Of a stretch of DNA of 64,000 nt, positions 4,056 to 19,957 are shown piece after piece. The notes beneath the pieces were generated by a model, which did not search any database, was not told the DNA's origin, and was given only the letters and a program-made list of their open reading frames with translations. The DNA comes from a virus (Duplodnaviria > Caudoviricetes), in IMG/VR virus record IMGVR_UViG_3300037067_013676, positions 24,535 to 88,534 of that record. The stretch is one strand, 5' to 3'. The position numbers were made by a program, and so were the translations under genes. Position 1 is the stretch's first letter, and each line of letters opens with the position of its first letter.

Positions 4056-4772
4056 ATGCTTTTACACATTATAATTCCAACACATTTTAGGCATCAAAAA
4101 TTAATGAACTGCCTTGGTTCGATTGAGCAAGCCAGAACACTTTTAGACTGCTATTCTTATGTTTTTGTCTATTATAGTGATAAAGAAGAATTTGAGAAAG
4201 ATTCAATAGGTTTAATTAATTATAAAAACATATTACCTAAACTTTTAGAAAAACCCTACTTCGCTTCTGAGTTTTGGAATGATCATATCAAATCATATAA
4301 TGCAGATATATACATTTATCTTAATGATGATATTGTCTTAGAAATGAATGCGTTAAAAAGAGTAGTAAATATAATGAATGAGAAGTTTAATGATTTAGAT
4401 GGGGTTGTGGCGATAACGCAAGAAAATATTCCTGAAAACCAAGCTTGCCCAACAGCTTTTGGTGCAATAGGAACTAAATTTACAGATAGATTCCCAGATA
4501 GAAAGGTTTTCTGTGAAGATTATGAACGACTATATTTAGATAGTGAACTCGGTGAATATGCTAAAAGTCAGGGGAAATTATTTCATAGTTTAGATAAAAG
4601 CATGGCCCCCCTACTAACACACTTTCATCCTGGATTTTTCCCTAATATGAAAGATTCCACACATGATGATGTTAGAACGCATTTAAGAAAAGATAAAATT
4701 ACTAATAATAGAAGAAAATCTAAAAACCTTCTTTGGGGAAGGGATTTTACATTAATAAATGCTAAAAATTAA
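4056..4772 (+). CDS. GT2-like glycosyltransferase
   Basis: IIIPTHFR..KLMNCLGSI, YIYLNDDIV, YLDSEL, HFHP. Confidence 0.75.
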   Translation: MLLHIIIPTHFRHQKLMNCLGSIEQARTLLDCYSYVFVYYSDKEEFEKDSIGLINYKNILPKLLEKPYFASEFWNDHIKSYNADIYIYLNDDIVLEMNALKRVVNIMNEKFNDLDGVVAITQENIPENQACPTAFGAIGTKFTDRFPDRKVFCEDYERLYLDSELGEYAKSQGKLFHSLDKSMAPLLTHFHPGFFPNMKDSTHDDVRTHLRKDKITNNRRKSKNLLWGRDFTLINAKN

Positions 4773-5487
4773 TCTATTAGTCCCAACAAGAAGTAGACCA
4801 AAATATCTTAAAGAATTGTTTCTTAATTTAGCATATACTATTCCTTCTTTCCGTTCAAATCACATAGAATTATTTTTAAAAATAGACGAAGATGATATAG
4901 AAACAAAAAAAGCTATTTCAATTTTAGAAAGAAATGAATATCCATTTAATTGGCATTATATTTCTAATCAAAAAAGCGATTTCTTAAATAGAGATTATTA
5001 TAACAATTTAAGTAGTATTGTTGCCGAAGGACTTTTGTGGGGAATTGCCGATGATGTTAGATTTTTTACTGATGATTGGTATAAATCATTAACAAATAAG
5101 GTAGAAGAATACTTAAAAGATAAACCAGATAGAATTGCTTATATATCAGTAAATGAAGAAGGAAGCACAGCTAAACATCCTTGTTTCCCCTTAATTACTA
5201 AAGAAGCTTTTCAAGTATTAGGCGAATATCACTGTTCAGAACTATTATCTTGGGGAAGTGATAGAATATTATGGGAGATATATAGTGGAATTGGGCGAAC
5301 CCTACATATACCAGAAATAAGTATTAAGCATTTAAGTTATCATGATGGTTCAGCACCTTTTGATGAAACAGCTAAAAGTATGAAAGAGAGATTCTTTAGA
5401 AATCCAAATGCACATAATCTTATTAGTGAAACTAAAGTTCCCCAACAAATAGAGAAATTAAAAAAATATATTGAGGAGTTTAAATAA
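4759..5487 (+). CDS. GT2-like glycosyltransferase
   Basis: LLVPTRSRP, LWGIADDVRF, CFPLI, WGSDRIL, IKHLSY. Confidence 0.75.
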   Translation: MLKINLLVPTRSRPKYLKELFLNLAYTIPSFRSNHIELFLKIDEDDIETKKAISILERNEYPFNWHYISNQKSDFLNRDYYNNLSSIVAEGLLWGIADDVRFFTDDWYKSLTNKVEEYLKDKPDRIAYISVNEEGSTAKHPCFPLITKEAFQVLGEYHCSELLSWGSDRILWEIYSGIGRTLHIPEISIKHLSYHDGSAPFDETAKSMKERFFRNPNAHNLISETKVPQQIEKLKKYIEEFK

Positions 5488-6614
5488 TGTGTTTAACTAA
5501 TGAATGGTCAGAAAAGAATATTTACAACAGCTTTAATTCTTTCGCTAAGGGGCTAACCTATTACGAATATTATGAAAGTATAAACAATTGGCGATTAGGT
5601 AAAATTAAAACTCCGAGAAGTCCTGTGGAAGTTTCCCTTGATCCGATTCATGCATGTAATTTGAAATGTTCCTGGTGCAATGCCTCTCGTTATTTAAAAG
5701 AAGGATTAGAAAATAGACGTATGAGTGATGAACATTTAATGAAGTTAATTACTTTTTTAGCTAAGTGGGGGGTTCGTGGTACATGTTGGGGAGGTGGCGG
5801 TGAAAGTTTACTCCACTCAAAAATGCAAGATGGTTTAGAGTTGGCATATTCTCTAGGTCTTGAAAATAGCATAGCTACAAACGGAACACTTTTCAATTCT
5901 AATTTAATAAATACTGCAATTAAAACCTGTAAATGGATTGGAATGTCAATAGACGCCGCTACTAAAGAAACATACTTTGAATCTAGAAAAATAGATTTAT
6001 TTGATAAAGCAATTTCTAATTTACAAGAATTATCAGAAAGAAGCAAATCTACTAACTCACAAGTAGATATAGCATATAAATTTTTAATCTTTAAAGAAAA
6101 TCAACATGAAATATATAAAGCTTGCGAATTAGCCAAAAAAATTGGAGTAAAAACATTTCACTGTCGACCAGCTTCTTACACTCACCAAGGGATGGAATTA
6201 AAATTAGATAATCCCTACGATATGAATTTAATAGAAGAAGAATTTGAAAAATGTAGAGAACTTGAAGATAAAAGTTTTAACGTGTTTTTGATTAGACATA
6301 AATTTAATCCTGATTTTTCAGCAAAAAGAGATTTTAGTCAATGTTGGGCGGGACCATTATGTATTCAAATATGTGCAGATAATAATGTATATAATTGCCC
6401 TGATACTCGTCATTTAGAAAGTTTTAAATTAGGAGAACATTATCCAAATCCAGAAAAAATATTAGAATTTTGGGGCAGTAAAAAACATTATAATATTGTA
6501 TTTAATGAAGCTTGTAAAATATGTAACTGGAGATGCACTTTTGGATACTATGCAAAACAATTTCAAGATTTGTTCATTGATAATAACGACCCACTATTCA
6601 GGAACTTTGTATAA
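5487..6614 (+). CDS. radical SAM protein with SPASM/twitch domain
   Basis: CNLKCSWC (CX3CX2C), WGGGGESLL, IATNGT, SIDAA; C-terminal CWAG...VYNC...CKICNWRC. Confidence 0.9.
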   Translation: MCLTNEWSEKNIYNSFNSFAKGLTYYEYYESINNWRLGKIKTPRSPVEVSLDPIHACNLKCSWCNASRYLKEGLENRRMSDEHLMKLITFLAKWGVRGTCWGGGGESLLHSKMQDGLELAYSLGLENSIATNGTLFNSNLINTAIKTCKWIGMSIDAATKETYFESRKIDLFDKAISNLQELSERSKSTNSQVDIAYKFLIFKENQHEIYKACELAKKIGVKTFHCRPASYTHQGMELKLDNPYDMNLIEEEFEKCRELEDKSFNVFLIRHKFNPDFSAKRDFSQCWAGPLCIQICADNNVYNCPDTRHLESFKLGEHYPNPEKILEFWGSKKHYNIVFNEACKICNWRCTFGYYAKQFQDLFIDNNDPLFRNFV

Positions 6615-6641
6615 AAATATGGAACAAGAAAGAAGAATTTA

Positions 6642-7265
6642 ATGGAAAAATCAACTAATAAAGTTGGCAAATATAAAAGAACAGAAAAACATCTTGAAAA
6701 TTTAAGAAAATATGCTTTTAAAAAAGGTATGATTCCTTGGAATAAAGGTTTAACTACAAAAACAGATGAAAGAGTTAAAAAATATGGGGAGAAATCTGGC
6801 AATACTAGAAAAGGTAAATTGGTTGGAATTTTTAGTCCTAATCATGGTAGAAAACACACAGAAGAAGAAATAATAAAAATGAAAAACGCAGCAATTAAAG
6901 ATGGAAGAAAACCACCATCCAGAAAAGACTGTGAAAATATTATTTTTAATTTTAAAAATTTACCAAATAAACCAGAAAAAGTACTTATTAATTTATTAAA
7001 TACTATTTTACCAAACGAATATAAATACATTGGAAACTGTAAATTATGGATTGAAGATTTTAATCCAGATTTTATAAACTGCAATGGGCAAAAGAAAATT
7101 ATAGAATTATTTGGTGATTACTGGCATAGAAATACTCAAGAAAGAGACAAAAATCGTTTAGAAACATATGCTAAATATGGATACAATACCTTAGTTATAT
7201 GGGAACATGAGTTAAAAGATTTACATAATGTGAGAAATAAAATATTAGAATGGAGTAAATTATAA
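6642..7265 (+). CDS. NUMOD3 + Vsr/DUF559-type homing endonuclease (family C)
   Basis: PWNKGLT and GRKHTEE NUMOD3 motifs; NKPEK...FNPDF...IIELFGDYWH...LVIWE. Confidence 0.8.
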   Translation: MEKSTNKVGKYKRTEKHLENLRKYAFKKGMIPWNKGLTTKTDERVKKYGEKSGNTRKGKLVGIFSPNHGRKHTEEEIIKMKNAAIKDGRKPPSRKDCENIIFNFKNLPNKPEKVLINLLNTILPNEYKYIGNCKLWIEDFNPDFINCNGQKKIIELFGDYWHRNTQERDKNRLETYAKYGYNTLVIWEHELKDLHNVRNKILEWSKL

Positions 7266-7642
7266 TGGAAAGAGACCCTGGCGATATTTTGGATCGAGGT
7301 TCTATTGCTAAACTAAAGCATGAAAGAATTAGAAATCCTGAAAATGATAAAGAATGGATTGCTTTTGAAAAAGAGTTAAAAATACTTATTAAAAAATATC
7401 CTAATCTTTTTATAAATGATTTGTTTGAACTATTATATAGTATTAATTCATTTATTTGGGAAAAAGAATCGGATATGAGACAAGGTAAATTAGATGGAAT
7501 TCTTTACGAAGTTGGTATTAGAGCTATAGAAATTCGTAAACTTAATAATTTTAGAATATCAATAAAAAATCTTATAAATAAGTTAACTGAAAGTGGATTT
7601 ATTGACATAAAACATAATCATCTTAGTGAAGGAACTAAATAA
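7265..7642 (+). CDS. DUF6165-like helical protein
   Basis: PGDILDR..I.KLKHERI...INSFIWEKESDMR...LNNFR..IKNLIN resembles DUF6165 proteins, recognised from memory. Confidence 0.5.
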   Translation: MERDPGDILDRGSIAKLKHERIRNPENDKEWIAFEKELKILIKKYPNLFINDLFELLYSINSFIWEKESDMRQGKLDGILYEVGIRAIEIRKLNNFRISIKNLINKLTESGFIDIKHNHLSEGTK

Positions 7643-9900
7643 TGAATAAAGTTTGTGTAATTAAGCCCAACGGAAATTCACAATATTGCCAAGACTTGCA
7701 AGAATACAAGTCAGTGGAGGTTCCTATCTGGCAGTTAGTTTTAGCTTCCCACTATAATACAGATTTACTTATAGATGGAGAAGTTAACAATCTGTCCAAT
7801 CAACAAATAGTAGATAAAGCAATTAACGAGTTTAAGGCTAAAAAAGTAGTTATCATTGCAACCGGAAATCATCCTAGCTCTTTTATACAGCAGCGTGGAG
7901 AAATGATTAAACTTAGTTGTATGTTTGAGAAGTATAAAGATGTTGAAATAATAACTCACAGTAAATTACCAGTAAATCCTTGTCAATATAAAGTTAATTG
8001 GGATTTGATAGATTTTAATAAGTACAGGGCGAGTAATTGGCATTGTGTAGATGAACAAACTGAAATTCTTACAGATCAAGGATGGAAGTTCTTTAAAGAT
8101 TTAGATAAAACAGAAAAAGTAGCTACATTAAACATAAATAAAAATTGTGTTGAATATCAAAAACCAAACAAATACTATAACTATGATTATGATGGAGAAA
8201 TGTATAGTTATAATGGAAGATTTGTAGATATGTTAGTAACATTAAACCATAAGTTATTAGTTAGTGGATATAATAATTATAAATGGAAATTAATAGAAGC
8301 TAATAAGACAAAAAAATGTATTCGTTTTAATAGATGTTTTAATTACGATAAAAAAGATGTTAATGATTTTATATTTCCTCAAATAGATACATATAGACTT
8401 AGAAGAAATGTTAAAAGTTTGTTAATGGATGATTTTTTATTATTTCTTGGAATTTATTTATCTGAAGGAAGTACATATAGAAATAATGTTGCCATTTCTC
8501 AATTAAATAAAGGAAAAAGAAAAGTAATTAAACAATGGATAGAAAAATTAAAATACCGTGTTACAGACAATAAAAAAACACCTTTTTTATCAATAAGTAA
8601 TAAACAGTTAGTTCTCTATTTTAAACAGTTTGGTAAAGCAAAAGATAAGTTTATCCCAAGAGAATTATTAAATTCTTTAAGTAAAAGACAATGTAGAATA
8701 TTATTAAAAGCATTAATGTTTGGAGATGGTTCTTGGGATAAAGAAAAAATAGAAAAAAGTGGATACTATTGTTCAACATCCAAACAACTATCTAACGATG
8801 TACAAGAATTAGCATTAAAAGGTGGCTATATGGCTTCTTTTGTAGAAACAAAATGGCATCTTAATAAGGGTCATTTTGGAAAAAATGTAGTTTACAGTGT
8901 AAATATTTGTGATACTAGAAAATATCCAGCAGTTGATGTTAGAACAAGAAAAACAGAAATTATAAATTACAAAGGAAAAGTTTATTGTGTAGAAGTAGAT
9001 AATCATATTATATATATACGTAGAAATGGCAAGTGTCATTGGACTGGAAATAGTATGACAAACAATTTAAATCCTTCCCCATATGGGGTTAATTATAGTT
9101 CAGTTTCATGCCCACATAAATGTAATTACTGCGTAGTTAAACGCTTTTACGGAAATAAGTATATTGAAAGAGATTTAGAAGATATAACGAGAGATTTTGA
9201 TGAATTAGCAAAAAGAAATGTAATTAATATTAAAATGATGGACGAATTATTTGTATCTAAACCAGAAAGAGTTAAAAAGATATGTCAAGCTATTATAGAT
9301 AAAGGATATAATTTTAATATTTGGGCTTACGCTAGAATAGATATTATGAATGATGAAATCCTAAAAATAATGAGAAAAGCTGGTATTAGGTGGCTGGCAT
9401 TCGGCGTAGAATCAGGAAACGATAAGATTAGAAAAGATGTTCTCAAAGGTAATTTTACCAAAAATAAAATTAAAGAAGTCATAAAAATGACTAAAGATAA
9501 TGATATTTGTGTTATAGGTAATTTTATGTTTGGTTTTTGGGAAGATAATAAAGATACTATGCAAGAAACTTTAGATTTAGCAATAGAGTTAAATTGCGAG
9601 TATGTAAACTTTTATTGCTTGACCGCATTTCCCGAAACAAATTTTCATAATGATTTGTTGTCTAAGGGAGTTCCACTGCCAACGAGCTGGGAACAATATG
9701 CCCAAATAAGCGAACAATTCAAAGCACTCCCAACCAAATACTTAAAAGCTGAAGAAGTATTACGTTTTAGGGACAGAGCTTTCCAAATTTATTTCAGAGA
9801 AAGTACATATATAGATATGATTGAATCTAAATTTGGGGCAAAAACAATAAAACATATAGATACAATGATACATAAAAGAATAGGAAGGTTGTACTGCTAA
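7642..9900 (+). CDS. cobalamin-binding-type radical SAM enzyme interrupted by an intein
   Basis: SCPHKCNYC after the intein; MDELF, WAYARID, FGVESGND, GNFMFG; 416 aa after removing the 336-aa intein. Confidence 0.88.
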   Translation: MNKVCVIKPNGNSQYCQDLQEYKSVEVPIWQLVLASHYNTDLLIDGEVNNLSNQQIVDKAINEFKAKKVVIIATGNHPSSFIQQRGEMIKLSCMFEKYKDVEIITHSKLPVNPCQYKVNWDLIDFNKYRASNWHCVDEQTEILTDQGWKFFKDLDKTEKVATLNINKNCVEYQKPNKYYNYDYDGEMYSYNGRFVDMLVTLNHKLLVSGYNNYKWKLIEANKTKKCIRFNRCFNYDKKDVNDFIFPQIDTYRLRRNVKSLLMDDFLLFLGIYLSEGSTYRNNVAISQLNKGKRKVIKQWIEKLKYRVTDNKKTPFLSISNKQLVLYFKQFGKAKDKFIPRELLNSLSKRQCRILLKALMFGDGSWDKEKIEKSGYYCSTSKQLSNDVQELALKGGYMASFVETKWHLNKGHFGKNVVYSVNICDTRKYPAVDVRTRKTEIINYKGKVYCVEVDNHIIYIRRNGKCHWTGNSMTNNLNPSPYGVNYSSVSCPHKCNYCVVKRFYGNKYIERDLEDITRDFDELAKRNVINIKMMDELFVSKPERVKKICQAIIDKGYNFNIWAYARIDIMNDEILKIMRKAGIRWLAFGVESGNDKIRKDVLKGNFTKNKIKEVIKMTKDNDICVIGNFMFGFWEDNKDTMQETLDLAIELNCEYVNFYCLTAFPETNFHNDLLSKGVPLPTSWEQYAQISEQFKALPTKYLKAEEVLRFRDRAFQIYFRESTYIDMIESKFGAKTIKHIDTMIHKRIGRLYC
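8044..9051 (+). mobile_element. intein with LAGLIDADG homing endonuclease (336 aa)
   Basis: Starts CVDEQTEILTDQGW (block A); VTLNH (block B TxxH); FLGIYLSEGS and LKALMFGDGS LAGLIDADG motifs; ends KVYCVEVDNH...HWTGN followed by Ser +1. Confidence 0.93.
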
Positions 9901-10574
9901 TGAGTATATTCAAACAACCACAATCTACCAATTTTAGTATAGTGCTTCCTTCGCTAAGATGGGAATGGATAAGAACAGTATTAAATTCTATTTATAATAA
10001 TGCTTACTATCCAGATATGATAGATACTCATATAGCCATAAACACTGGAGAAATAAGAATAAAAACTATTCTAGAATCTTATAGGTGGAAAAATAATAAT
10101 GTTCATTTTTATGAAATAGACCCAGCTACAATGACTTTAGCTGGATTAAACTTTGTTGGCATAGTTCCTTATGTTAATCTTCTTACTAAAGAATATGCTA
10201 AAGGTAAGTATATAATGCCAATGAATGACGATGCACTGTTCACTATGAAAAATTGGGATAAGAATGCTTTAGAAAGATTACCAGATGATATAGTATTAGG
10301 TCTTACTAATGATAATATACGCCCAAAGGGATTTGACGGTAGGTCAATACCAGCATGTTCTTTCCCAATAATTTCAAGAAAAGGTATTGAGCGTTTTAGG
10401 CATTTATTTGATCCATATTTTTATCATAACATAGCAGATACACACATTTGTTCAGTTTATTATGATATTGGGAAAACCGTTGATTTAACAGATATAGTAT
10501 ATATAGCTCATAGACCAGATGAACTTTGTAATAATATACCAACAGACTATTTAACAGAAGTAGAAAAATGTTAA
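9900..10574 (+). CDS. GT2-like glycosyltransferase
   Basis: FSIVLPSLR, AKGKYIMPMNDDALF, SFPII, IADTHI. Confidence 0.75.
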   Translation: MSIFKQPQSTNFSIVLPSLRWEWIRTVLNSIYNNAYYPDMIDTHIAINTGEIRIKTILESYRWKNNNVHFYEIDPATMTLAGLNFVGIVPYVNLLTKEYAKGKYIMPMNDDALFTMKNWDKNALERLPDDIVLGLTNDNIRPKGFDGRSIPACSFPIISRKGIERFRHLFDPYFYHNIADTHICSVYYDIGKTVDLTDIVYIAHRPDELCNNIPTDYLTEVEKC

Positions 10575-11146
10575 ACAAAGATCAACTTATTAATTTTGAA
10601 GAAGAAATAGCAGAAATTTATAATCAAGGACTTATTCGTGCTCCAATACATTTGCATGTTGGTGCAGAAGAAGGATTAATAAATATATTCAAAGAACATT
10701 ATAAAGAAAATGATTGGATAGTAAGTACACATAGAGCACATTATCCATGGCTTTTATCAGGTCGTTCTCCAGAAGAACTTAAAAAACAGATATTAGAAGG
10801 TCATTCTATGCAATTATTTGATGATAAGTTTATAACATCATCTATTGTAGCTGGTGGAGCTTCTATCGCAGTTGGAATAGCTTTAGCGTTGCAAAAAGAA
10901 GAAAGTGAGAATAAAGTATTATGCTTTTTAGGTGATGCCGCAAGCGAATGTGGTATAGCTAAAGAAAGTATTAGATATTCAGAAGGACATGACTTACCAA
11001 TTTTATTTATAATTGAAAATAATGAAAAATGTGTAAATACTAATACTTATCAGTCATGGGGTACTAAAAATATTCCAAAAGTAATTAAATTTGATTATTG
11101 TAGAAAGTATCCCCACGCTGGTTGTGGTACTTACATTATGTTCTAA
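10568..11146 (+). CDS. TPP-dependent dehydrogenase E1 alpha-like subunit (minimal, 192 aa)
   Basis: APIHLHVGAE, STHRAHY, SSIVAGG..IAVGIA; TPP motif GDA...ENN. Confidence 0.85.
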   Translation: MLNKDQLINFEEEIAEIYNQGLIRAPIHLHVGAEEGLINIFKEHYKENDWIVSTHRAHYPWLLSGRSPEELKKQILEGHSMQLFDDKFITSSIVAGGASIAVGIALALQKEESENKVLCFLGDAASECGIAKESIRYSEGHDLPILFIIENNEKCVNTNTYQSWGTKNIPKVIKFDYCRKYPHAGCGTYIMF

Positions 11147-12555
11147 TGAAAATTTTATTTGTAATACAACAATTAGATTTTGCTGATCATATAGCAATTT
11201 CATATTTATCAGCAGTAGCTAAAGAATTAGGTCATAATACCTATTTTTGTTCTTTAAGAAGTAACAGTATTGAAAAAATGGTAGATAATATTAAACCAGA
11301 TGTTTTAGCTTATTCTGCTAATATTATGGGATTTGAAGAGTTGGTGGAAGCTAATAAAAAAGCCCAATCTATTCATAAATGTTTTAGTGTTATGGGCGGT
11401 CCACAAGTTACATTTTCTCCAGAAACTTATAAAGAAAGTGGAATAGATGTTTTTGTAATGGGTGAAGGTGAAGGTGCTTTTAGAGATTTATTAGAACGAT
11501 TAAAAGAAGGAAAAAATTATGATGAAGTAGAAAATCTTATTACTCCTAAAGGTATTAATCCTTTGAGAAATTTAATTAGTAATTTAGATGAAATTCCATT
11601 TCCTGATAGAGATTTAGTTTTATCTAATTCTTGGTTAAAGAATATTCCTAAAAAGACATTTTATTCTACTAGAGGATGTTTCTTTAAATGTAATTATTGT
11701 TGTAATGTTAAGTATCATGAACTTTATAAAGATAAAGGACAATTATTTAGACGATTTTCTGTTGAAAGAGTAATTAAAGAAATAGAGTATGTTCAACAAA
11801 GATATAAAATGGATTTTGTTAAAATGGGGGATGATTTATTTGCTATGAAAGCAGATGATTGGTTAATAGAATTTAGTGAAAAATATTCTAAAAGAATAGG
11901 AAAACCTTTTAATTGTTATTTACGTTTTGATAGAATAGATGATGAAGTTTTAAAGTTGCTTAAAAAAGCTGGATGTTATTCTGTTAATTTATCAGTAGAT
12001 AGTTTATCTCAACATGTTAGAGAAAAAGTGTTAAATAGAAGTATGAGAAAAGTAGATATTGAAACTGAATTAAAAAGAATTAATAGATATGATATAAATA
12101 CTTTTGTAAATTTTATGTTAGCCATACCAGAATCTACTTTAGAAGACGATTTAAATACTATAGATGTAGCTAGAAAAGCAAAAATAACTTATGTTAATTA
12201 TACTACTACAGAACCAATGAAAGGAACTAAACTTTATGATTATTGTTTAGAAAAAGGATATATAGATAAAAATACATTTGTAGGAGATATGACTCATATG
12301 TTTCAAAAATCCCCTCTTTCCTGTTTTAGTGAAAAAGAAAAGAATATTAGATATAATATTTATGCTCTTGGTTGTTTAGTATCTAAACTACCTAAATTTT
12401 TACAGGATTTTGGAATGTGGATTATAAAAACCATACCTGCAAATAGATTATTTGGATTTATTAGACAATGTGTATATAACTATCATATAGAAAATAAGAT
12501 TTTTAATTTTTCTAAAAAAGATAAAGAAATAAAAAATGAGAAGCCAGTATCATAA
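11146..12555 (+). CDS. cobalamin-binding radical SAM enzyme
   Basis: VMGGPQVTF, GEGEGA, FPDRDL, TRGCFFKCNYC, GDDLF; start at 11146 from the TAATG overlap. Confidence 0.9.
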   Translation: MKILFVIQQLDFADHIAISYLSAVAKELGHNTYFCSLRSNSIEKMVDNIKPDVLAYSANIMGFEELVEANKKAQSIHKCFSVMGGPQVTFSPETYKESGIDVFVMGEGEGAFRDLLERLKEGKNYDEVENLITPKGINPLRNLISNLDEIPFPDRDLVLSNSWLKNIPKKTFYSTRGCFFKCNYCCNVKYHELYKDKGQLFRRFSVERVIKEIEYVQQRYKMDFVKMGDDLFAMKADDWLIEFSEKYSKRIGKPFNCYLRFDRIDDEVLKLLKKAGCYSVNLSVDSLSQHVREKVLNRSMRKVDIETELKRINRYDINTFVNFMLAIPESTLEDDLNTIDVARKAKITYVNYTTTEPMKGTKLYDYCLEKGYIDKNTFVGDMTHMFQKSPLSCFSEKEKNIRYNIYALGCLVSKLPKFLQDFGMWIIKTIPANRLFGFIRQCVYNYHIENKIFNFSKKDKEIKNEKPVS

Positions 12556-13066
12556 AATAATTAAAGAAAGAATGAATAATTTAGCACTATTGCCTAATTC
12601 TATTTTTATTGGGCAACAGGTCATGGCACCAGAAAATTTTTATGGAACTTTAGTAGATGTTCCAATAGAAAAAAGATTAGAGTTACCAGTTTGTGAAGAG
12701 TTACAGTTAGGTTTAAGTTTAGGTCTATCGTTAAAAGGTTATTTTCCTATTAGTATAATACAGAGATGTGATTTTTTACCAAGATGTTTAGATCAAATTG
12801 TAAATCATTTGAATCTAATGGAAGAATGTTCTCGTAAACGATACGTCCCCCGTATTTTACTTAGAACAACAATAGGAAGTAAAGTTCCATTAAACGTTGG
12901 ACCTCAGCATTCGCAAAATCTTGTGGAATTAATGAAAATAGCTTGTAAATTTCCAGTTTTTTTAGTAGAAACAGTAAAAGAAGTAAATGAAGCATATGAT
13001 TTTGCAATAAAATCAACTAAGTCAACTTTAATTATAGAAAGGCAAGCACTTTATGAAACAATTTAG
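12536..13066 (+). CDS. TPP-dependent E1 beta / transketolase pyrimidine-binding-like subunit (minimal, 176 aa)
   Basis: IFIGQQV, ELPVCEELQLGLSLGLSL.G..PI, LDQIVNH, GPQHSQ. Confidence 0.85.
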   Translation: MRSQYHKIIKERMNNLALLPNSIFIGQQVMAPENFYGTLVDVPIEKRLELPVCEELQLGLSLGLSLKGYFPISIIQRCDFLPRCLDQIVNHLNLMEECSRKRYVPRILLRTTIGSKVPLNVGPQHSQNLVELMKIACKFPVFLVETVKEVNEAYDFAIKSTKSTLIIERQALYETI

Positions 13067-13823
13067 TATTTTGATTACAACAAGACAAAGAGTTGAAATG
13101 CTTCATAATTTATTAGCAAGCATTTATAGAACTACTTCTAATAAAAATGGAGTAGAGATTAGAGTCATTTATGATAATGATGATATTATTACTGATAATT
13201 ATGTTAAACATAAATTTCATATAGAATTTGGAAACCCGCCAAAAATAGAAACTTTTTTTCATATTAGAAAACGATCTCCAAATTTAGTCAACGATTATCA
13301 TAATTGGTGTTCTAGAAAGTTTGCTCAAGGTAAATATATAATATTTTCTAATGACGATGCTCTTTTTGAAATGGATAGGTGGGATGTATTAACTGAAACC
13401 AAACTACTCGAATTTGAAAAAATTCGCCCAGATGGAATTCTTTATGGTATGCCACAGGATTTTGAATATGCTCCCGCTAGAAATGAAAATAATTGGATGG
13501 CATGCTTTCCTCTAATTTCTAAAAAAGTAGTTGAAATATTGGGATTTGCATTTGATCCTTCTTTTCAAAGAGATGGTGCAGATTGGGCTATGGCAAAAAC
13601 ATTTCAACTTATAGATAGAGTAGTTGATTTAAGAGATACTGTTGTGATTAAACATTTGTCTTTTAGATCTGGTAGAAGGAAAAAAGATGATTTAGATTTG
13701 TATGCTCTTAGCTTGGGATTTAGTAATCCACCTATAGAAATATCAGCAAGAAAAAATGCAGAAATACTACAAAGTTATATAAATAAATATAATCAAGTCG
13801 AAAGAATCTTAAAAGGATTATAA
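13053..13823 (+). CDS. GT2-like glycosyltransferase
   Basis: FSILITTRQR, AQGKYIIFSNDDALF, CFPLIS, GADWA, IKHLS. Confidence 0.78.
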   Translation: MKQFSILITTRQRVEMLHNLLASIYRTTSNKNGVEIRVIYDNDDIITDNYVKHKFHIEFGNPPKIETFFHIRKRSPNLVNDYHNWCSRKFAQGKYIIFSNDDALFEMDRWDVLTETKLLEFEKIRPDGILYGMPQDFEYAPARNENNWMACFPLISKKVVEILGFAFDPSFQRDGADWAMAKTFQLIDRVVDLRDTVVIKHLSFRSGRRKKDDLDLYALSLGFSNPPIEISARKNAEILQSYINKYNQVERILKGL

Positions 13824-13824
13824 A

Positions 13825-14634
13825 ATGGATATACAATTTTCATTAATTTGCCCAAGTATTCGCCCACAGTTTTGGAATGAGATATGTAGTTCTTTGTTAG
13901 ATAATAAGTTAAATTGGGAAATTCTATTTATTGGACCACTAAAACCACTTGAATCTTTACCACCACAAGCAAAATATATATATTCACCAACAAAACCAAG
14001 TCAATGCACACACATAGGATTTATGGAATCCAAAGGAGAATATGTTTCAATTACAGCAGATGATGCGGTTTATTTTTCTCCTAACCATAAAGGTGCTCTA
14101 GATAATATGTATAATTTTATTAAGAATTTTCCTAAAGCAGAAATTCATAAACCTTCAGGCAAACCTTTTTACAATAAAAATAAAATAGCATATGGATTTA
14201 GAATGTTTGAAGACCAATTTTGTGCAGAAACTTCGCATACACATTTTTTAACTAACGATGGTAAATCTCCACAATTATTTCCATTTTTTGTTATTGCTAA
14301 TGGGGTATATCAAGAGTTAGGTGGATATGATAATAGATTTATAACTGGGCAAGCTGAAAATGACTTATTATTCAGAATTTCGGTAGCTTATGGTTCAACA
14401 AAAAATAGTTTGTGCCCAACAGCTATGGTTTGGGCATTACATGATAAACATGGAAATAGTGGAAGTTTTAGGAAATATCATTCACAAGATTTTGGATTAT
14501 TAAAAACCTTATGGATTGCTAATGGTTCAAGTGAGAATTTATTTTCTATAACTAGAAATGATACCAGAATTTTTTCTTATATTAATGACGATACATTGTA
14601 TATAAAAAGCCAAGGTGAGGTTGGAGAGTGGTAG
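13825..14634 (+). CDS. GT2-like glycosyltransferase
   Basis: LICPSIRPQ, GEYVSITADDA, LGGYDNRFITGQAEND. Confidence 0.8.
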   Translation: MDIQFSLICPSIRPQFWNEICSSLLDNKLNWEILFIGPLKPLESLPPQAKYIYSPTKPSQCTHIGFMESKGEYVSITADDAVYFSPNHKGALDNMYNFIKNFPKAEIHKPSGKPFYNKNKIAYGFRMFEDQFCAETSHTHFLTNDGKSPQLFPFFVIANGVYQELGGYDNRFITGQAENDLLFRISVAYGSTKNSLCPTAMVWALHDKHGNSGSFRKYHSQDFGLLKTLWIANGSSENLFSITRNDTRIFSYINDDTLYIKSQGEVGEW

Positions 14635-15362: not shown

Positions 15363-15492
15363 AAAAGAAAAAGATAAAATACTTTGTTTCGAATGTGATG
15401 GCGAAGGAACTATAACTAAAGAAGATGGTTCTATAGTGCCGTGTATAGAATGCAAAGGAACTGGTTATCTGACAATAATTAAAACTAAATAA
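15346..15492 (+). CDS. 48-aa DnaJ-type zinc-finger miniprotein (not in ORF track)
   Basis: SD AAGGAG then MVPIIKKEKDKILCFECDGEGTITKEDGSIVPCIECKGTGYLTIIKTK*; two CxxCxGxG motifs; TAATG overlap with the next gene. Confidence 0.8.
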   Translation: MVPIIKKEKDKILCFECDGEGTITKEDGSIVPCIECKGTGYLTIIKTK

Positions 15493-16838
15493 TGAAAATC
15501 TTATTATGTGTTTTAAGTAATTCTAATTTTATACACTACATACCTCTCGGCGTAGCTTATATCGCTAGTGTTTTAAGAAATAATAGTCACGAAGTTATTA
15601 TTTATTCTCAAGATATTCATCACTATCCAGAAGAACATCTAACCAAATATCTTGATAAAAACAAATTTGATGTAGTTGGCATTGGGGCAATTTCTGGGTA
15701 TTTCCCTTATAGAAAATTATTGAAAGCATCAGAATCTATAAATAAGAGTATAAATAGACCTTTTTTTATTTTAGGTGGTCATATGCCTTCTGCTGACCCA
15801 CAATACTTTTTAAGAAAAACTGGTGCAAACTGTGTAATACGTGGAGAAGCAGAATTATCTTTTGTTGAAATATTAAATATGATTAGTAGAAAAGAAGAAG
15901 TACCTAAAGTAGTGGAAGGAAAATTAGTTAACGATTTAGACTACTTACCATTTCCAGCGTATGATATGTTTCTAATGGAGTATTATAGATTACAAAGGTA
16001 TCCCCACATAGAAAATAATGAGTTTTCAATGTCAATGTTAAGTGGTAGGGGATGCTGGGGAAGATGCGTTTTTTGCCAAAGATTAACACCAAATATCAGA
16101 TTAAGAGGAGTTAATAGTATAGTAGAAGAAATTAAACTACTTAAAAAGAATTATAGTATCTCTTATATAGATTTTGCTGATGACTTAACTTTTGCATCAA
16201 AACAAAGAACTGCCGAATTATGTGAATCATTTATTAAGAATAATTTGAATATAAAATGGAGATGTGAGGGTAGATTAAATTTTATAGATTCAGATATACT
16301 TAAATTAATTAGAAAAGCTGGATGTGTTTTTATTAATTATGGTATAGAATCTTTAGATGATGAAGTATTAAAAAATATGAAGAAAGATTTAACAGTTTCT
16401 CAAATAATAAATGGTGTAGAAGCTACTTTAAAAGAAGGTATTAGCCCAGGACTTAATGTTATTTTCGGCAACATTGGAGATAATAAAGAAACTCTTAAAA
16501 AAGCAGTGGATTTCTTATTAAAATATGATGATGGAGCACAAGTAAGAACAATACATCCTGTCATTCCGTTTCCTGGCACGGAACTATTCGAAACTGCCAA
16601 AGAAAAAGGTTTATTAAAAGATACTGAAGATTTTTATGAACACAAGCACACAAACAGCGATTTGTTGACAGTTAATTTTACAGAATTAACAGATGAAGAA
16701 TTTTATAAAGAATTATATAAAGCTAACTTTCAACTTCTATGTAATTATAATAAAAATAGATTATATGATTATGAAAAACAATTAAAAGAAATATATTTAG
16801 AAAAAAACACTAACTTTCGGGGGTTCGGGCATAAATGA
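15492..16838 (+). CDS. cobalamin-binding radical SAM enzyme
   Basis: PLGVAYIAS, ILGGHMPS, IRGEAE, LPFPAYD, GRGCWGRCVFC, FADD, YGIES, PFPGTEL. Confidence 0.92.
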   Translation: MKILLCVLSNSNFIHYIPLGVAYIASVLRNNSHEVIIYSQDIHHYPEEHLTKYLDKNKFDVVGIGAISGYFPYRKLLKASESINKSINRPFFILGGHMPSADPQYFLRKTGANCVIRGEAELSFVEILNMISRKEEVPKVVEGKLVNDLDYLPFPAYDMFLMEYYRLQRYPHIENNEFSMSMLSGRGCWGRCVFCQRLTPNIRLRGVNSIVEEIKLLKKNYSISYIDFADDLTFASKQRTAELCESFIKNNLNIKWRCEGRLNFIDSDILKLIRKAGCVFINYGIESLDDEVLKNMKKDLTVSQIINGVEATLKEGISPGLNVIFGNIGDNKETLKKAVDFLLKYDDGAQVRTIHPVIPFPGTELFETAKEKGLLKDTEDFYEHKHTNSDLLTVNFTELTDEEFYKELYKANFQLLCNYNKNRLYDYEKQLKEIYLEKNTNFRGFGHK

Positions 16839-17689
16839 ACTGTTCAAATTGTGGTGAAAGTCTGCATAAATCAAAAGTAATAGCTAAACAAAATGATATT
16901 AGATTTAATTGCTACAATACTAAAAAAAGAATAGTTCAATGTTCTAAATGCGAATTAGTTCAACTTATTCCACAGTGGTCAGATAAAGAGTTAGATAAAA
17001 TTTACACTACATATAATCAAAAACCTGATTTTATAGGGCAAAAAAATATATCTAAAAGAATAAGTAAATGGATTAAAAAATACTTAGTAAAGGTGGGGCA
17101 AAATTTGGAAGTTGGATGTGGCAATGGTGATACTGTAAAATATTTTAAAACTAAAATGTATAATATAATGGGCATAGATAAAGATAAATCTGTAGAAAAA
17201 TGTTATGAGGGAATATATAATTATGATATTTACGATAAAAAATTTGATAAAGACTTGTATCATGCTAAATTTTATTTTATCTATGGATTACATATATTAG
17301 AACATATGAAAAACCCGATAAAATTTATTGAAAGATTAAAAGAATTGTTATTCTCCGAAGGAACTATACTATTAGAATTTCCAAATTTGGAAGATCCATT
17401 ACTAACCATATATAAATCAAAAGAGTTTGAAAAGTTTTATTATAGACCAGACCATCATTTCTTCTACACACCAAAAACAATAATGGATTTATTGTATAGA
17501 AATAAAGTAGTTAACTGTCAAATAAAAAGAACTCAAACTTATAGTATAGTAAACCATTTAAATTGGTTAATTAGAAAAAAACCAACCAATCTTAAAATAA
17601 ATTTACCTATAATTGATTTTCTATATAAGTGGTGTTTAGTTCATATATTTAAAAAATCTGATACAATACTCTTAATAATTAAAAAATGA
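16835..17689 (+). CDS. class I SAM-dependent methyltransferase with N-terminal Zn ribbon
   Basis: CSNC...CSKC, LEVGCGNG, HILEHMKNP, H.FFYT. Confidence 0.88.
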   Translation: MNCSNCGESLHKSKVIAKQNDIRFNCYNTKKRIVQCSKCELVQLIPQWSDKELDKIYTTYNQKPDFIGQKNISKRISKWIKKYLVKVGQNLEVGCGNGDTVKYFKTKMYNIMGIDKDKSVEKCYEGIYNYDIYDKKFDKDLYHAKFYFIYGLHILEHMKNPIKFIERLKELLFSEGTILLEFPNLEDPLLTIYKSKEFEKFYYRPDHHFFYTPKTIMDLLYRNKVVNCQIKRTQTYSIVNHLNWLIRKKPTNLKINLPIIDFLYKWCLVHIFKKSDTILLIIKK

Positions 17690-18468
17690 GAAAAAAATAT
17701 AAATGTATAGAAAAAGATTGTAAAAATGAAGTTTCTGGCAAAAATAGAAGATGCAGACATCACGCACTAATATTGAGACATAAGTTAACAAATTTTGCTT
17801 TAAAACATGGCAGATATTCCAAAAATTTTAAACCAATTTACTATTGTATAGATGGATGTGGAGCAAAAGTAAGTGAAGAAGGAAATAGATGTTATTCTTG
17901 TTCTAAACTTGGTAACAAAAATCCTCAATTTATAGATGGCAGAACAAATAAAGTATATTATTGTTTAGTAAAAGGATGTAATACTATTGTAAAATCATAT
18001 GGGAAAAAATGTAGGCATCATGCTCAATCAGGGAGAAAAGTTTCAGATAAAACTAAGAAAAAACAAAGTATATCTATGAAAAAAGCTGGTTTTACTCATA
18101 ATAAAGAAATTTGTTCTTGTTTTATTTGCAAAGCTTATAGAGGTGAAACTAAAGGTGAAAACGCAAGCAATTGGATGGATGGAAGAAGTTTTGAAGACTA
18201 TCCAAAAGAATTTAATGCAGAACTTAGAGATAAAATAAGAAAACGTGATGATTATATTTGTCAAAATTGTGGTATGACAGAAGAAGAACATATAATAGTT
18301 TTGGGTTATAATTTGACTATTCATCATATAGATTATAATAAAAATAATAATAAAGAAAGTAATTTAATTACTACCTGTAGTAGTTGTAATTGTAGAGCCA
18401 ATTATAATAGAAATTATTGGAAAGAATATTATCAAAAGAAAATGGAGAAAAAATGCATACAACAATAA
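17686..18468 (+). CDS. free-standing HNH homing endonuclease (family A)
   Basis: RDDYICQNCG...LTIHHIDYNK...NLITTCSSCN; Cys-rich N-terminal repeats. Confidence 0.85.
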   Translation: MRKKYKCIEKDCKNEVSGKNRRCRHHALILRHKLTNFALKHGRYSKNFKPIYYCIDGCGAKVSEEGNRCYSCSKLGNKNPQFIDGRTNKVYYCLVKGCNTIVKSYGKKCRHHAQSGRKVSDKTKKKQSISMKKAGFTHNKEICSCFICKAYRGETKGENASNWMDGRSFEDYPKEFNAELRDKIRKRDDYICQNCGMTEEEHIIVLGYNLTIHHIDYNKNNNKESNLITTCSSCNCRANYNRNYWKEYYQKKMEKKCIQQ

Positions 18469-19292
18469 TTGCAGAAGCAGGTATAAATCATCTTGGGAGT
18501 ATAGATTTATGCATGCAGTTAATTGATGGAGCTGTTTTTGGTGGAGCAGATATTTTTAAATTACAAAAAAGAGATATTAATTCTACTTATACTAAAGAAG
18601 AGTTGAATAAATATAGAGAATCTCCCTTTGGATTGTTGAATCGTGATTTAAAAAAACAATTAGAATTTAATGAAAAAGAATATGATATTATTAAAAAATA
18701 CTGCGATTCTAAAAATATTGAATTAATGGTTTCGGCTTGGGACTTGGCAAGTCAAAATTTTCTCAAAAAATATAATTGCAAGTATAACAAAGTAGCTTCT
18801 GCTAGATTAGGTCATAAAAAACTATTGGAAGAAATAGCCAAAGAAGGTAAATATACGTTCATTTCTACTGGTATGGCAACGATTGACGAAATTGGGGAAG
18901 CTATAAAAATATTTAATAATTTCGGATGCCCATTTGAGTTAATGGCTTGTAATAGTAGCTATCCTTGCCCAGATGAAGATTTGAATTTATTAACTATTAA
19001 AACTTTAAGAGATACTTTTGGGTGTAAAGTTGGGTTCAGTAGTCATTCGCCTGGGATTATTCCTTGTGTATTAGCTGTGGCTTTAGGTGCTACTTCTATA
19101 GAAGCCCATCTGACGACGAATAGAACTCTTTATGGTAGTGACCAAGCTTCTTCAATTGAAATTCACGGATTTAAAAGAATGGTTGATTATGTAAGGGATG
19201 CTGAACTGCAATTGGGCGATGGTATTAAAGTAATAACTGAAACAGAGAAAAAGATAAGAGAAAAACTCTACAGGACTGAAGATATACAATGA
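18453..19292 (+). CDS. neuB: N-acetylneuraminate/nonulosonate synthase family (NeuB/SpsE), lacking C-terminal SAF domain
   Basis: IIAEAGINHLG, GADIFKLQ, YNKVASA, ISTGM, CNSSYP, VGFSSH, IEAHLT; ATG 18453 after GGAG; 279 aa. Confidence 0.9.
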   Translation: MHTTIIAEAGINHLGSIDLCMQLIDGAVFGGADIFKLQKRDINSTYTKEELNKYRESPFGLLNRDLKKQLEFNEKEYDIIKKYCDSKNIELMVSAWDLASQNFLKKYNCKYNKVASARLGHKKLLEEIAKEGKYTFISTGMATIDEIGEAIKIFNNFGCPFELMACNSSYPCPDEDLNLLTIKTLRDTFGCKVGFSSHSPGIIPCVLAVALGATSIEAHLTTNRTLYGSDQASSIEIHGFKRMVDYVRDAELQLGDGIKVITETEKKIREKLYRTEDIQ

Positions 19293-19957
19293 ATGATAAA
19301 ATAGTGATTTGTGGAGCCAGGGGTGGTAGTTCGAGGGTTCTCAACAAAAATATTAGAAAATTAGGAGAAATTCCTCTTATTGAGTATTCTCTATTTACTG
19401 GTGAATTATTAGGATTACCTATTTATGTTTCTTCCGATTCCGATAAAATACTCAAAATTGTAAAAACTCATGGATCTTTAGTAAACATTATTAAAAGACC
19501 TAGTATATTAGCTTCAAATACATCAACTGATATAGATTGGATAAAACATTTATTAAGTATTTATTATGAGCAAAATAGTTCTTATCCTAAACAATTAATA
19601 TTTTTAAGACCAACTACCCCACTTAGGGAAATTTCTATAGTTAAAGAAGCAATTAAAAAATTTAACGGTTCAAAATATACTTCATTAAGAAGTGTAGAAG
19701 AACTAAAAGAAAGTATCTATAAAACATATTTTATAAAAAACTGTATTCTTGAACCATTTAACAAAGATAATAGTAATGTGGCGAACCAAACCTTGCCAAT
19801 TTCCTATGGTGCAAACGGATATATAGATATACTACTTACAGAGCAAATATTAAACTCAAATGATATATATGGTGATAAAATAATGCCATTTATAACTCCA
19901 AGAACAATAGAAATAGATGATGAATTTGATTTTAAACTTGCGGAGAAATTAATATGA
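19289..19957 (+). CDS. neuA: acylneuraminate (CMP-nonulosonate) cytidylyltransferase
   Basis: ARGGSSRVLNKNI, VSSDSD, LRPTTPLR, NGYI, IEIDDEFDF. Confidence 0.9.
   Translation: MNDKIVICGARGGSSRVLNKNIRKLGEIPLIEYSLFTGELLGLPIYVSSDSDKILKIVKTHGSLVNIIKRPSILASNTSTDIDWIKHLLSIYYEQNSSYPKQLIFLRPTTPLREISIVKEAIKKFNGSKYTSLRSVEELKESIYKTYFIKNCILEPFNKDNSNVANQTLPISYGANGYIDILLTEQILNSNDIYGDKIMPFITPRTIEIDDEFDFKLAEKLI

Follow-up and report, generated by a model that had tools for sequence, protein, structure and literature searches.

A minimal E1-like subunit pair in phage and cellular glycan clusters and its conserved class-B radical SAM neighbour

Introduction

What reaction can a pair of E1-type subunits carry out when a virus encodes them in a much shortened form? 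Enzymes of this type depend on thiamine diphosphate (ThDP) and are known with large subunits that are bound into multienzyme complexes; to our knowledge, the few E1-like pairs placed in sugar pathways are of full size, and little biochemical work has been done on them. The question is raised by a 64-kb stretch of DNA (the window) from the linear 88.5-kb IMG/VR virus record IMGVR_UViG_3300037067_013676 (estimated completeness 81%), in which an E1alpha-like gene (alpha) and an E1beta-like gene (beta) bracket a gene for a radical S-adenosylmethionine (SAM) enzyme (rSAM1). The initial annotation of the window had proposed that the pair makes a branched-chain sugar as a stripped-down carboligase, in the manner of AviB1/AviB2 of avilamycin biosynthesis, perhaps acting on a ketone generated by the bracketed enzyme. 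By sequence, the pair belongs to a large uncharacterised family that is mostly viral and also occurs in Omnitrophota, the candidate phyla radiation (CPR) and DPANN. The reading that we favour, at slightly less than an even chance, is that of a heteromeric ThDP enzyme of minimal size, which would remove CO2 from a 2-oxo acid and transfer the acyl-anion unit to a sugar carbonyl; we infer this chemistry, namely the substrate, the formation of a C-C bond and the order of the steps, by analogy with known pairs.

The two subunits retain the cofactor-binding core of E1

The argument concerns four genes of the window.

10568-11146, plus strand: alpha, minimal E1alpha-like ThDP subunit with the diphosphate-binding (PP) fold, 192 aa (Pfam E1_dh)
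11146-12555, plus strand: rSAM1, class-B (cobalamin-binding-domain) radical SAM enzyme, 469 aa (Pfam B12-binding and Radical_SAM)
12536-13066, plus strand: beta, minimal E1beta-like pyrimidine-binding (Pyr) subunit, 176 aa (Pfam Transket_pyr)
7642-9900, plus strand: partner class-B radical SAM enzyme with a LAGLIDADG intein (phylogenetic tree and identity to cellular neighbours)

Alpha matched Pfam E1_dh with an E value of 3.7e-18, over profile positions 6-178 of 300 only, and its translation contains the motif G122-D123-A124 ... N151-N152 (GDA-X26-NN), which in a profile alignment falls on GDG...ENN of human pyruvate dehydrogenase (PDH) E1alpha. Residues 46-210 (of 365) of the human subunit were the closest solved relative (E = 2e-15), and human E1alpha was also the best Foldseek match (TMq 0.70) of an AlphaFold2 (AF2) model with a predicted local distance difference test score (pLDDT) of 87.5. 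Among orthologues G122 was invariant and D123 and N152 nearly so, and the alignment of 25 orthologues contained 40 invariant columns. The C-terminal half of E1alpha, including the active-site/regulatory loops, is absent from alpha; an invariant tail (W164, G165, R179, H183) could, we infer, substitute for the missing active-site loops.

Beta matched Pfam Transket_pyr over residues 6-172 with 26.5 bits, half a bit below the gathering score, and a profile of 16 beta orthologues retrieved the E1beta structure 1ik6 from the PDB at 1.6e-15, in its Pyr domain only. E54 is invariant within PVxEE and aligns with the cofactor-activating Glu (PLNE of 1ik6), and the invariant Q124-H125 aligns with the YHS motif of E1beta. 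The protein ends with the Pyr domain at 176 aa and has no transketolase-C domain, the E2 docking site of E1. Because 21 beta columns, like the 40 alpha columns, are invariant across distant orthologues, the pair is neither a chance resemblance nor decayed. The elementary description in the initial annotation, an alpha of 192 aa with GDA...NN and a beta of 176 aa reduced to the pyrimidine-binding domain, with a B12 radical SAM gene between them and all three on the plus strand, was confirmed by these matches and by the Pfam domains and CxxxCxxC motif of rSAM1.

An alpha-beta heteromer is predicted. The complex prediction scored 0.86, a value that may reflect no more than likeness to solved E1 complexes, and the best of three controls scored 0.00; of 80 solved complexes 58 scored at least this high, as did 2 of 110 mismatched pairs, counts that are only rough since our own alignments were used. 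Separate runs shared at least 88% of the contacts, with a partner pLDDT of at least 92, and the predicted interface joins alpha residues 79-111 and 130-137 to beta residues 51-69 and 86-103, which are the helices of the cofactor site. Nothing indicates that alpha and beta are exons of one gene: the two reading frames lie in frame 2 with separate start and stop codons, and adjacent separate genes are usual elsewhere.

The core thus outlined resembles human PDH E1 (1ni4/3exe) and Pyrobaculum E1beta (1ik6) in its PP and Pyr folds, GDx...NN, activating Glu and QH(S); the interface of the two subunits, as predicted, would lie at the cofactor helices. It differs from E1 in lacking the E2-binding domain, the active-site loop region and E2/E3 partners, and in a beta that consists of the first domain only. 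No match to PF00198 (2-oxoacid_dh, E2), PF00364 (Biotin_lipoyl) or PF02780 (Transketolase_C) was found in the 88.5-kb record, and five small CPR/DPANN genomes carrying the pair had no E2 above cut-off, although these genomes may be incomplete. The earlier statements that no E2 is present and that the pair is not a PDH E1 are upheld by the missing E2-docking domain, alpha C-terminal half and E2/E3.

A large and mostly viral family

PHROG 34187, a fused alpha-beta family of unknown function with 405 positions, was matched by alpha at 8-199 and by beta at 238-404. A word-indexed search returned 358 short homologues (105-336 aa), and an exhaustive search at E<=1e-3 returned 2253 cluster representatives. 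Viral sequences made up 80-98% of the nearest ESM Atlas clusters. The family is unnamed because no NCBIfam model reached its cut-off. Pattern scans yielded 18 loci from metagenome-assembled genomes (MAGs), 5 from IMG/VR and 80 from metagenomes; the neighbourhood statistics below refer to these approximately 100 loci, which are biased to close relatives, and the context counts to 43 non-redundant loci of at least 6 kb. The MAG loci came from genomes of Omnitrophota, Desulfosudaceae, Planctomycetota, Verrucomicrobiota, CPR bacteria, Pace- and Woesearchaeota, and Methylocystis.

A fused alpha-beta protein of 402 aa is encoded by the cyanophages S-SM2 and P-TIM68, and fused forms occur elsewhere too. 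In the alpha homologue P0173, an intein is inserted exactly before the GD of the ThDP motif; inteins typically occupy essential, conserved sites. Two further alpha homologues have unusual architectures, a LAGLIDADG region ahead of alpha in P0167 and an APH-type kinase fused to alpha in P0151.

The pair lies in heptose- or ulosonate-type sugar clusters

Heptose-type genes accompanied the pair in 14 of the 43 loci and NeuB/NeuA-type genes in 9, the window included, and no locus (0/43) had both. This neighbourhood analysis of short E1 homologues bears out the sugar/glycan setting assumed by the initial annotation. In an Omnitrophota locus (L005), genes for a Wzx flippase, a GT2 glycosyltransferase, an extended short-chain dehydrogenase/reductase (SDR), an HddA-like heptose-7-phosphate kinase and an HddC-like guanylyltransferase are followed, in this order, by the partner radical SAM gene, alpha, beta, a DegT/RfbH-like enzyme and a GDP-fucose-synthase-like SDR. 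Further loci carry GmhA and an RfaE-domain-II-like adenylyltransferase. As HddA/HddC-like genes occur in L005 and RfaE-domain-II-like genes in the others, two non-homologous heptose-activation routes accompany the pair. Neither NeuB nor a class III aminotransferase was present in the heptose-type loci.

The heptose-type lipopolysaccharide ('LPS') clusters of S-SM2 and P-TIM68, the function of which has been stated to be unknown (PMC3037559), contain an annotated phosphoheptose isomerase (GmhA), an RfaE-domain-II-like nucleotidyltransferase, and kinase and epimerase genes. In both, a Zn-alcohol dehydrogenase gene immediately precedes fused alpha-beta (7963-10185 of the S-SM2 locus L001 and 7970-10194 of the P-TIM68 locus L002), and there is no radical SAM neighbour. 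The combination of a Zn-alcohol dehydrogenase with fused alpha-beta resembles an aerobic version of the module formed by alpha, beta and the partner radical SAM enzyme.

The ulosonate-type arrangement is seen in compact form in L047, which reads GT2, GT2, SPASM radical SAM, DUF6165, methyltransferase, partner radical SAM, alpha, beta, two unknown genes, NeuB, NeuA and class III aminotransferase. Domain searches of the phage record found no SIS isomerase, NTP_transferase, extended SDR or GHMP kinase. The NeuB/NeuA genes are its sole sugar-activating genes, so CMP-ulosonate is the only nucleotide sugar that the record can activate by itself.

Within 4 kb of alpha, an extended SDR was found in 8 of the 43 loci, a SPASM radical SAM in 13 and both in 0, a statistically weak pattern. 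The two may be alternative sources of the same carbonyl, a suggestion for which the pattern is too weak to carry weight.

The conserved genetic partner is a second class-B radical SAM enzyme

The class-B radical SAM enzymes that adjoin alpha/beta in cellular loci were 41-46% identical to the C-terminal 270 aa of the 7642-9900 product and only 25-28% identical to rSAM1. In a maximum-likelihood tree, the extein of 7642-9900 fell into one clade with the cellular alpha/beta neighbours (SH-aLRT 100), and rSAM1 formed a separate clade from phage-type loci only. An orthologue of the 7642-9900 enzyme was present in 26 of the 43 loci, in 21 of them within 1.5 kb of alpha; some radical SAM gene was present in 36. 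On the evidence of the tree and these identities, the conserved genetic partner of alpha/beta is the class-B enzyme at 7642-9900 and not the bracketed rSAM1.

The partner gene is interrupted by a LAGLIDADG intein (approximately 8044-9051, or residues 135-470), which lies between NWH|C and HWTGN|S, about 20 residues before the CxxxCxxC motif. The intein is not present in the orthologues of L030, L023 and L025, and window positions 8043-9057 have no counterpart in L030.

rSAM1 matched Pfam B12-binding (PF02310, E = 6.6e-13) and Radical_SAM (PF04055, E = 2.3e-14), and its CxxxCxxC motif (C178/C182/C185) is invariant. Its AF2 model (pLDDT 83.5) had as best Foldseek match the non-methylating dehydratase AprD4 (6fd2, E = 1.4e-18), followed by CysS, MgmA, TsrM, OxsB and TokK. 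For both class-B enzymes AprD4 is the closest solved relative by sequence and by fold, with cobalamin methylases scoring almost equally; NCBIfam ranked HpnJ and BchE highest for the partner. No NCBIfam model reached its cut-off, and none of NCBIfam, PDB sequence search and Foldseek was decisive between methylase and dehydratase.

Comparison with known sugar-tailoring systems

The closest published counterparts are two PDH-E1-like pairs, AviB1/AviB2 of avilamycin and Pau11/Pau12 of paulomycin biosynthesis, for which the proposed reaction is the attachment of a pyruvate-derived C2 branch to a 4-keto sugar (PMC4425429, PMC4753412). Like them, the minimal pair combines an E1alpha-like with an E1beta-like subunit, both encoded in a sugar-tailoring cluster that has no E2/E3 (PMC4425429, PMC4753412), and it would share their presumed ThDP acyl-anion chemistry on a sugar carbonyl, a likeness drawn from published descriptions and not from sequence. 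Pau11 and Pau12, at 325 and 345 aa, are full-size E1 subunits (PMC4425429), whereas the phage subunits are reduced to 192 and 176 aa by the absence of the C-terminal half in alpha and of the C-terminal domain in beta. The AviB and Pau pairs belong to actinomycetes and TDP-deoxyhexose pathways, the minimal pair to phages or uncultured lineages and to heptose or ulosonate clusters. Linkage to a class-B radical SAM enzyme is a feature of the minimal pair, none being described for AviB/Pau in PMC4425429 and PMC4753412. By analogy, the minimal pair would be a new minimal variant of E1-like sugar-tailoring ThDP enzymes, linked to class-B radical SAM enzymes and spread mainly by phages.

An analogous step in an O-antigen sugar pathway is that of YerE (yersiniose), a ThDP/FAD enzyme resembling acetolactate synthase that adds pyruvate C2 to CDP-3,6-dideoxy-4-keto-glucose (PMC4753412). 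The RfbH/DegT-like enzyme and SDRs that adjoin cellular relatives of the pair are neighbours expected of a yersiniose-like route. YerE differs in being a single chain of the POX/AHAS family with Pyr before PP, and it has no family-level homology to the E1-type pair. AprD4, the radical SAM 1,2-diol dehydratase of apramycin biosynthesis, converts a sugar into a deoxy-keto sugar; it shares the Rossmann plus radical SAM architecture and a similar size with both class-B enzymes, but is only 16-17% identical to them, and CysS, MgmA, TsrM and TokK are nearly equal.

Three other assignments fit poorly. Membership among the transketolases or 1-deoxyxylulose 5-phosphate (DXP) synthases (DXS) is indicated by weak DXS and transketolase model matches only, with no transketolase C-terminal (TKC) domain. 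The split ThDP decarboxylases (sulfopyruvate ComDE and phosphonopyruvate decarboxylase) do not fit, the best Pfam families being E1_dh and Transket_pyr; TPP_enzyme_C was a weak secondary match in some homologues only. A phosphonate route, with phosphonopyruvate decarboxylase and a PhpK-like P-methylase, was dropped: the pair belongs to the wrong ThDP family for it, and no phosphoenolpyruvate mutase was found in the Pfam scans that covered genes of the window operon and of L005.

A proposed reaction and its rivals

In the reaction that we favour, alpha would provide the diphosphate/Mg site and beta the aminopyrimidine site with the activating Glu, so that the cofactor would sit at the alpha-beta interface, as in PDH E1. 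With the parts that couple E1 to lipoyl-E2 gone, the pair would be a free-standing E1 core. A 2-oxo acid would be decarboxylated, most likely pyruvate, since PDH E1 is the closest family, which is weak evidence. The ThDP-bound acyl anion would then pass to the carbonyl group of a sugar intermediate in the phage glycan/ulosonate pathway, the acceptor carbonyl probably being produced by one of the neighbouring radical SAM enzymes.

Of the earlier proposal, the comparison with AviB1/AviB2 survives as the best analogy, given nucleotide-sugar clusters with an SDR, a GDP-fucose-synthase-like and a DegT/RfbH-like enzyme; its nucleoside diphosphate (NDP)-4-keto-sugar substrate is not indicated here, because the phage has no NDP-hexose/heptose machinery and its local pathway is of the NeuB/NeuA (CMP-ulosonate) type. 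A ketone made by a radical SAM enzyme is plausible, with no SDR in the record and AprD4 as the closest solved structure, but cobalamin methylases score almost as well.

Several points weigh against the carboligase that we favour. No NDP-sugar dehydratase or SDR of any kind is encoded in the record to produce the classical 4-keto acceptor. The occurrence of two unrelated sugar types, heptose and ulosonate, is explained as well by side-chain chemistry shared between them, or by a co-substrate that is not a sugar, as by branching of the ring. For the class-B radical SAM enzymes, sequence and fold cannot tell a methylase from a dehydratase. Alpha lacks the loop that bears the second catalytic His of E1, so that catalysis may differ from that of E1. 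The cyanophage forms, beside a Zn-alcohol dehydrogenase and away from any radical SAM enzyme, would also fit a plain decarboxylase plus reductase. Literature searches for a ThDP plus radical-SAM sugar pathway and for the cyanophage 'transketolase central region' gene returned no study of the family.

The alternative that survives best, although we regard it as unlikely, is a plain 2-oxo-acid decarboxylase, which would remove CO2 and release an aldehyde. E1-type enzymes begin with decarboxylation, and ulosonic acids are 2-oxo acids, so the substrate could be the 3-deoxy-2-ulosonic acid made by NeuB, or else a small keto acid. The aldehyde could undergo transamination by the class III (omega-type) aminotransferase of the cassette, reduction, as the position of the cyanophage fused forms directly after a Zn-alcohol dehydrogenase would suggest, or condensation as the aldehyde substrate of NeuB. 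However, NeuA requires an intact ulosonate, and decarboxylating the NeuB product would be waste; the heptose-type loci offer neither NeuB nor the aminotransferase; and the known sugar-cluster E1-like pairs have been proposed as carboligases (PMC4425429).

An improbable alternative is a transketolase- or DXS-like ketol or acyloin synthase, the product of which would be the sugar backbone itself, such as a ketose phosphate that enters the heptose or ulosonate pathway, and not a tailored sugar. Weak matches to the DXP_synthase_N and transketolase models, GmhA, which needs a ketose phosphate, in heptose-type loci, and the APH kinase-alpha fusion in P0151 would agree with such a role. The PDH E1alpha and E1beta families are nevertheless by far the best matches, and the TKC domain is absent; in addition, the 1-deoxy product of pyruvate addition should not be isomerisable by GmhA, and sedoheptulose 7-phosphate is normally supplied by the host.

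The gene order reflects cassette shuffling at the alpha-beta junction

The remaining question is what the position of rSAM1 between the subunits signifies. Its true start is ATG 11146, which overlaps the alpha stop as TAATG, and not TTG 11122, and the beta ATG overlaps the last 20 nt of rSAM1. When alpha, beta and reference neighbours were mapped onto all loci by tblastn, alpha and beta were adjacent or fused in 59 of the 71 non-redundant loci showing both subunits and interrupted in 12; in cellular loci the gap between them was 6-42 nt. The insert was rSAM1 in the window, L076 and L025 (the last with a second class-B enzyme as well) and a different class-B enzyme in L046. In a 735-kb phage (LR756501; L003, 7959-13880) the order is beta-SPASM radical SAM-alpha, with TylC3-type sugar C-methyltransferases (Methyltransf_14) on both sides. 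The radical SAM enzymes bracketed in different loci belong to different families. HNH endonuclease genes separate the subunits in L023 (7210-8166), L072 (6545-7141) and L079 (872-1324), GT2-like genes do so in L063 and L080, and in L035 an HNH gene (6351-6908) directly follows alpha. The junction in phages is a permissive site visited by homing endonucleases, and it looks like a homing or insertion hot spot.

The only loci with an rSAM1 orthologue were of the phage type (L023, L025, L030 and L076), and in each of them it abutted beta; rSAM1 was not present in 38 of the 43 loci. Single-sequence pattern scans of viral contigs found none for alpha and, for rSAM1, only the contig of L023. In L030, the closest relative, and in L023 the order is alpha-(HNH)-beta-rSAM1. 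At the DNA level the window and L030 are colinear with 80-89% identity, with two exceptions, the intein and a clean exchange of the beta/rSAM1 cassettes in which the breakpoints are gene boundaries. When window 10568-13066 is compared with L030 2675-5174, alpha and beta are 67% and 56% identical in amino acid sequence, and the flanking radical SAM enzymes (partner, rSAM1 and rSAM2) 86-91%; the lower identity of the pair than of its flanks suggests cassette replacement by recombination.

Because the nearest relative reads alpha-beta-rSAM, the bracketing is a lineage-specific swap of two cassettes and does not bear the weight given to it by the initial annotation. Judged from these alignments, the alpha-rSAM1-beta order is a by-product of cassette shuffling in the phage lineage of the window, and it indicates only that the three genes form one tightly co-translated operon. 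We consider it very improbable that alpha, rSAM1 and beta are an obligatory three-protein machine whose order serves co-translational assembly. The TAATG and 20-nt overlaps do couple the genes, the order recurs in L025 and L076, radical SAM genes also lie between the subunits in L046 and the 735-kb phage, and rSAM1 always abuts beta; but the subunits are adjacent or fused in most loci, the closest relatives (L030 and L023) have beta-rSAM1, HNH and GT2 genes occupy the same junction elsewhere, and rSAM1 is missing from 38 of 43 loci while the bracketed enzymes are of different families.

Just as the distribution data disfavour such a machine, the missing domains make it barely credible that the pair, for all that PDH E1alpha and E1beta are its closest families by sequence, is a genuine E1 (pyruvate or acetoin dehydrogenase) that uses host E2/E3, since in every member beta is without its C-terminal E2-docking domain and alpha without its C-terminal half, and no E2 was found in the phage record or the five small pair-carrying genomes, or a functionless decaying remnant, which strong conservation across hundreds of sequences excludes.

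The phage record and its glycan operon

The record is from a tailed phage, as a tape-measure gene (38528-41764, minus strand) indicates, and the window has a GC content of about 29%. One operon on the plus strand spans approximately 114-24020. Its content and the genes beside the pair are as follows.

Approximately 114-24020, plus strand, ThyX, endonuclease and transferase genes: ThyX, two HNH endonuclease genes, several GT-A glycosyltransferases and a sialyltransferase-like gene
Approximately 114-24020, plus strand, SAM-dependent genes: two SPASM radical SAM, three class-B radical SAM and a SAM methyltransferase
Approximately 114-24020, plus strand, ulosonate and other genes: short NeuB, CMP-ulosonate cytidylyltransferase, class III aminotransferase and a VOC (glyoxalase-family) protein
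5487-6614, plus strand: SPASM-type radical SAM (Pfam Radical_SAM)
7265-7642, plus strand: DUF6165-like small protein (Pfam DUF6165, E = 4.3e-5)
9900-10574, plus strand: glycosyltransferase-like gene between the partner radical SAM gene and alpha (phrog_14945, E = 2e-4)
13053-13823, plus strand: glycosyltransferase-like gene 3′ of beta (phrog_14945, E = 2.6e-10)
15492-16838, plus strand: second phage-lineage class-B radical SAM (Pfam; own clade in the tree)
16835-17689, plus strand: SAM methyltransferase (Pfam)
18417-21189, plus strand: NeuB-like synthase, CMP-ulosonate cytidylyltransferase and class III aminotransferase (Pfam, NCBIfam)

The glycosyltransferase-like gene at 9900-10574 overlaps the start of alpha by 7 nt and has paralogues at 4759-5487 and 13053-13823. 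Orthologues of the SPASM enzyme (at least 35% identity) lay within 4 kb of alpha in 13 of the 43 loci and accompany alpha/beta in ulosonate-type cassettes; a sequence search found no solved relative of it. The DUF6165-like protein was present in 10 of the 43 loci and is co-inherited with the cassette. The gene at 2547-3203 matches phrog_4603 (alpha-2,3-sialyltransferase, E = 1.3e-12), in agreement with the NeuB/NeuA of the operon.

Searches with Rfam at gathering thresholds and with ARAGORN found no RNA element or intron within the window, and megablast of positions 10000-14000 against deposited phages gave no match. The same locus occurs four times (L050, L036, L037 and L038), at a spacing of exactly 109,258 bp, on contig JGI24729J20445_1000001 (419,765 bp), which is a concatemer of a relative phage of approximately 109 kb (also IMGVR_UViG_3300029959_000004); the ratio 88.5/109.3 = 0.81 agrees with the completeness estimate of the window's record.

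Implications for phage and host glycans

The family represents a natural minimal E1 of approximately 190 plus 175 residues. Its members number in the hundreds, come mainly from phages and from bacteria and archaea with small genomes, and always lie in glycan clusters, usually next to a radical SAM enzyme. For the interpretation of such loci, the radical SAM gene inside the pair is an unreliable functional clue, and a different neighbour gene is the useful one. The pair offers a small, tractable system for what the E1 core does alone, and it could serve biocatalysis as a compact carboligase scaffold.

A bolder and quite unlikely extension of the reaction that we favour is that the class-B radical SAM enzyme, minimal E1alpha and minimal E1beta form a portable module for an undescribed sugar chemistry, in which an AprD4-like carbonyl is made and the side chain is then extended or branched. 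Heptoses and nonulosonic acids have an exocyclic vicinal diol in common, from which the radical SAM enzyme would form a carbonyl in the manner of AprD4, and the minimal ThDP enzyme would extend or branch the side chain with an acyl-anion unit. If this were true, higher-carbon sugars would be made anaerobically without NAD-dependent dehydrogenases, and the module, spread by phages, would serve to remodel the glycans of the host or of the virion. The minimal pair is a handle on the unknown higher-sugar structures of phage or host surfaces.

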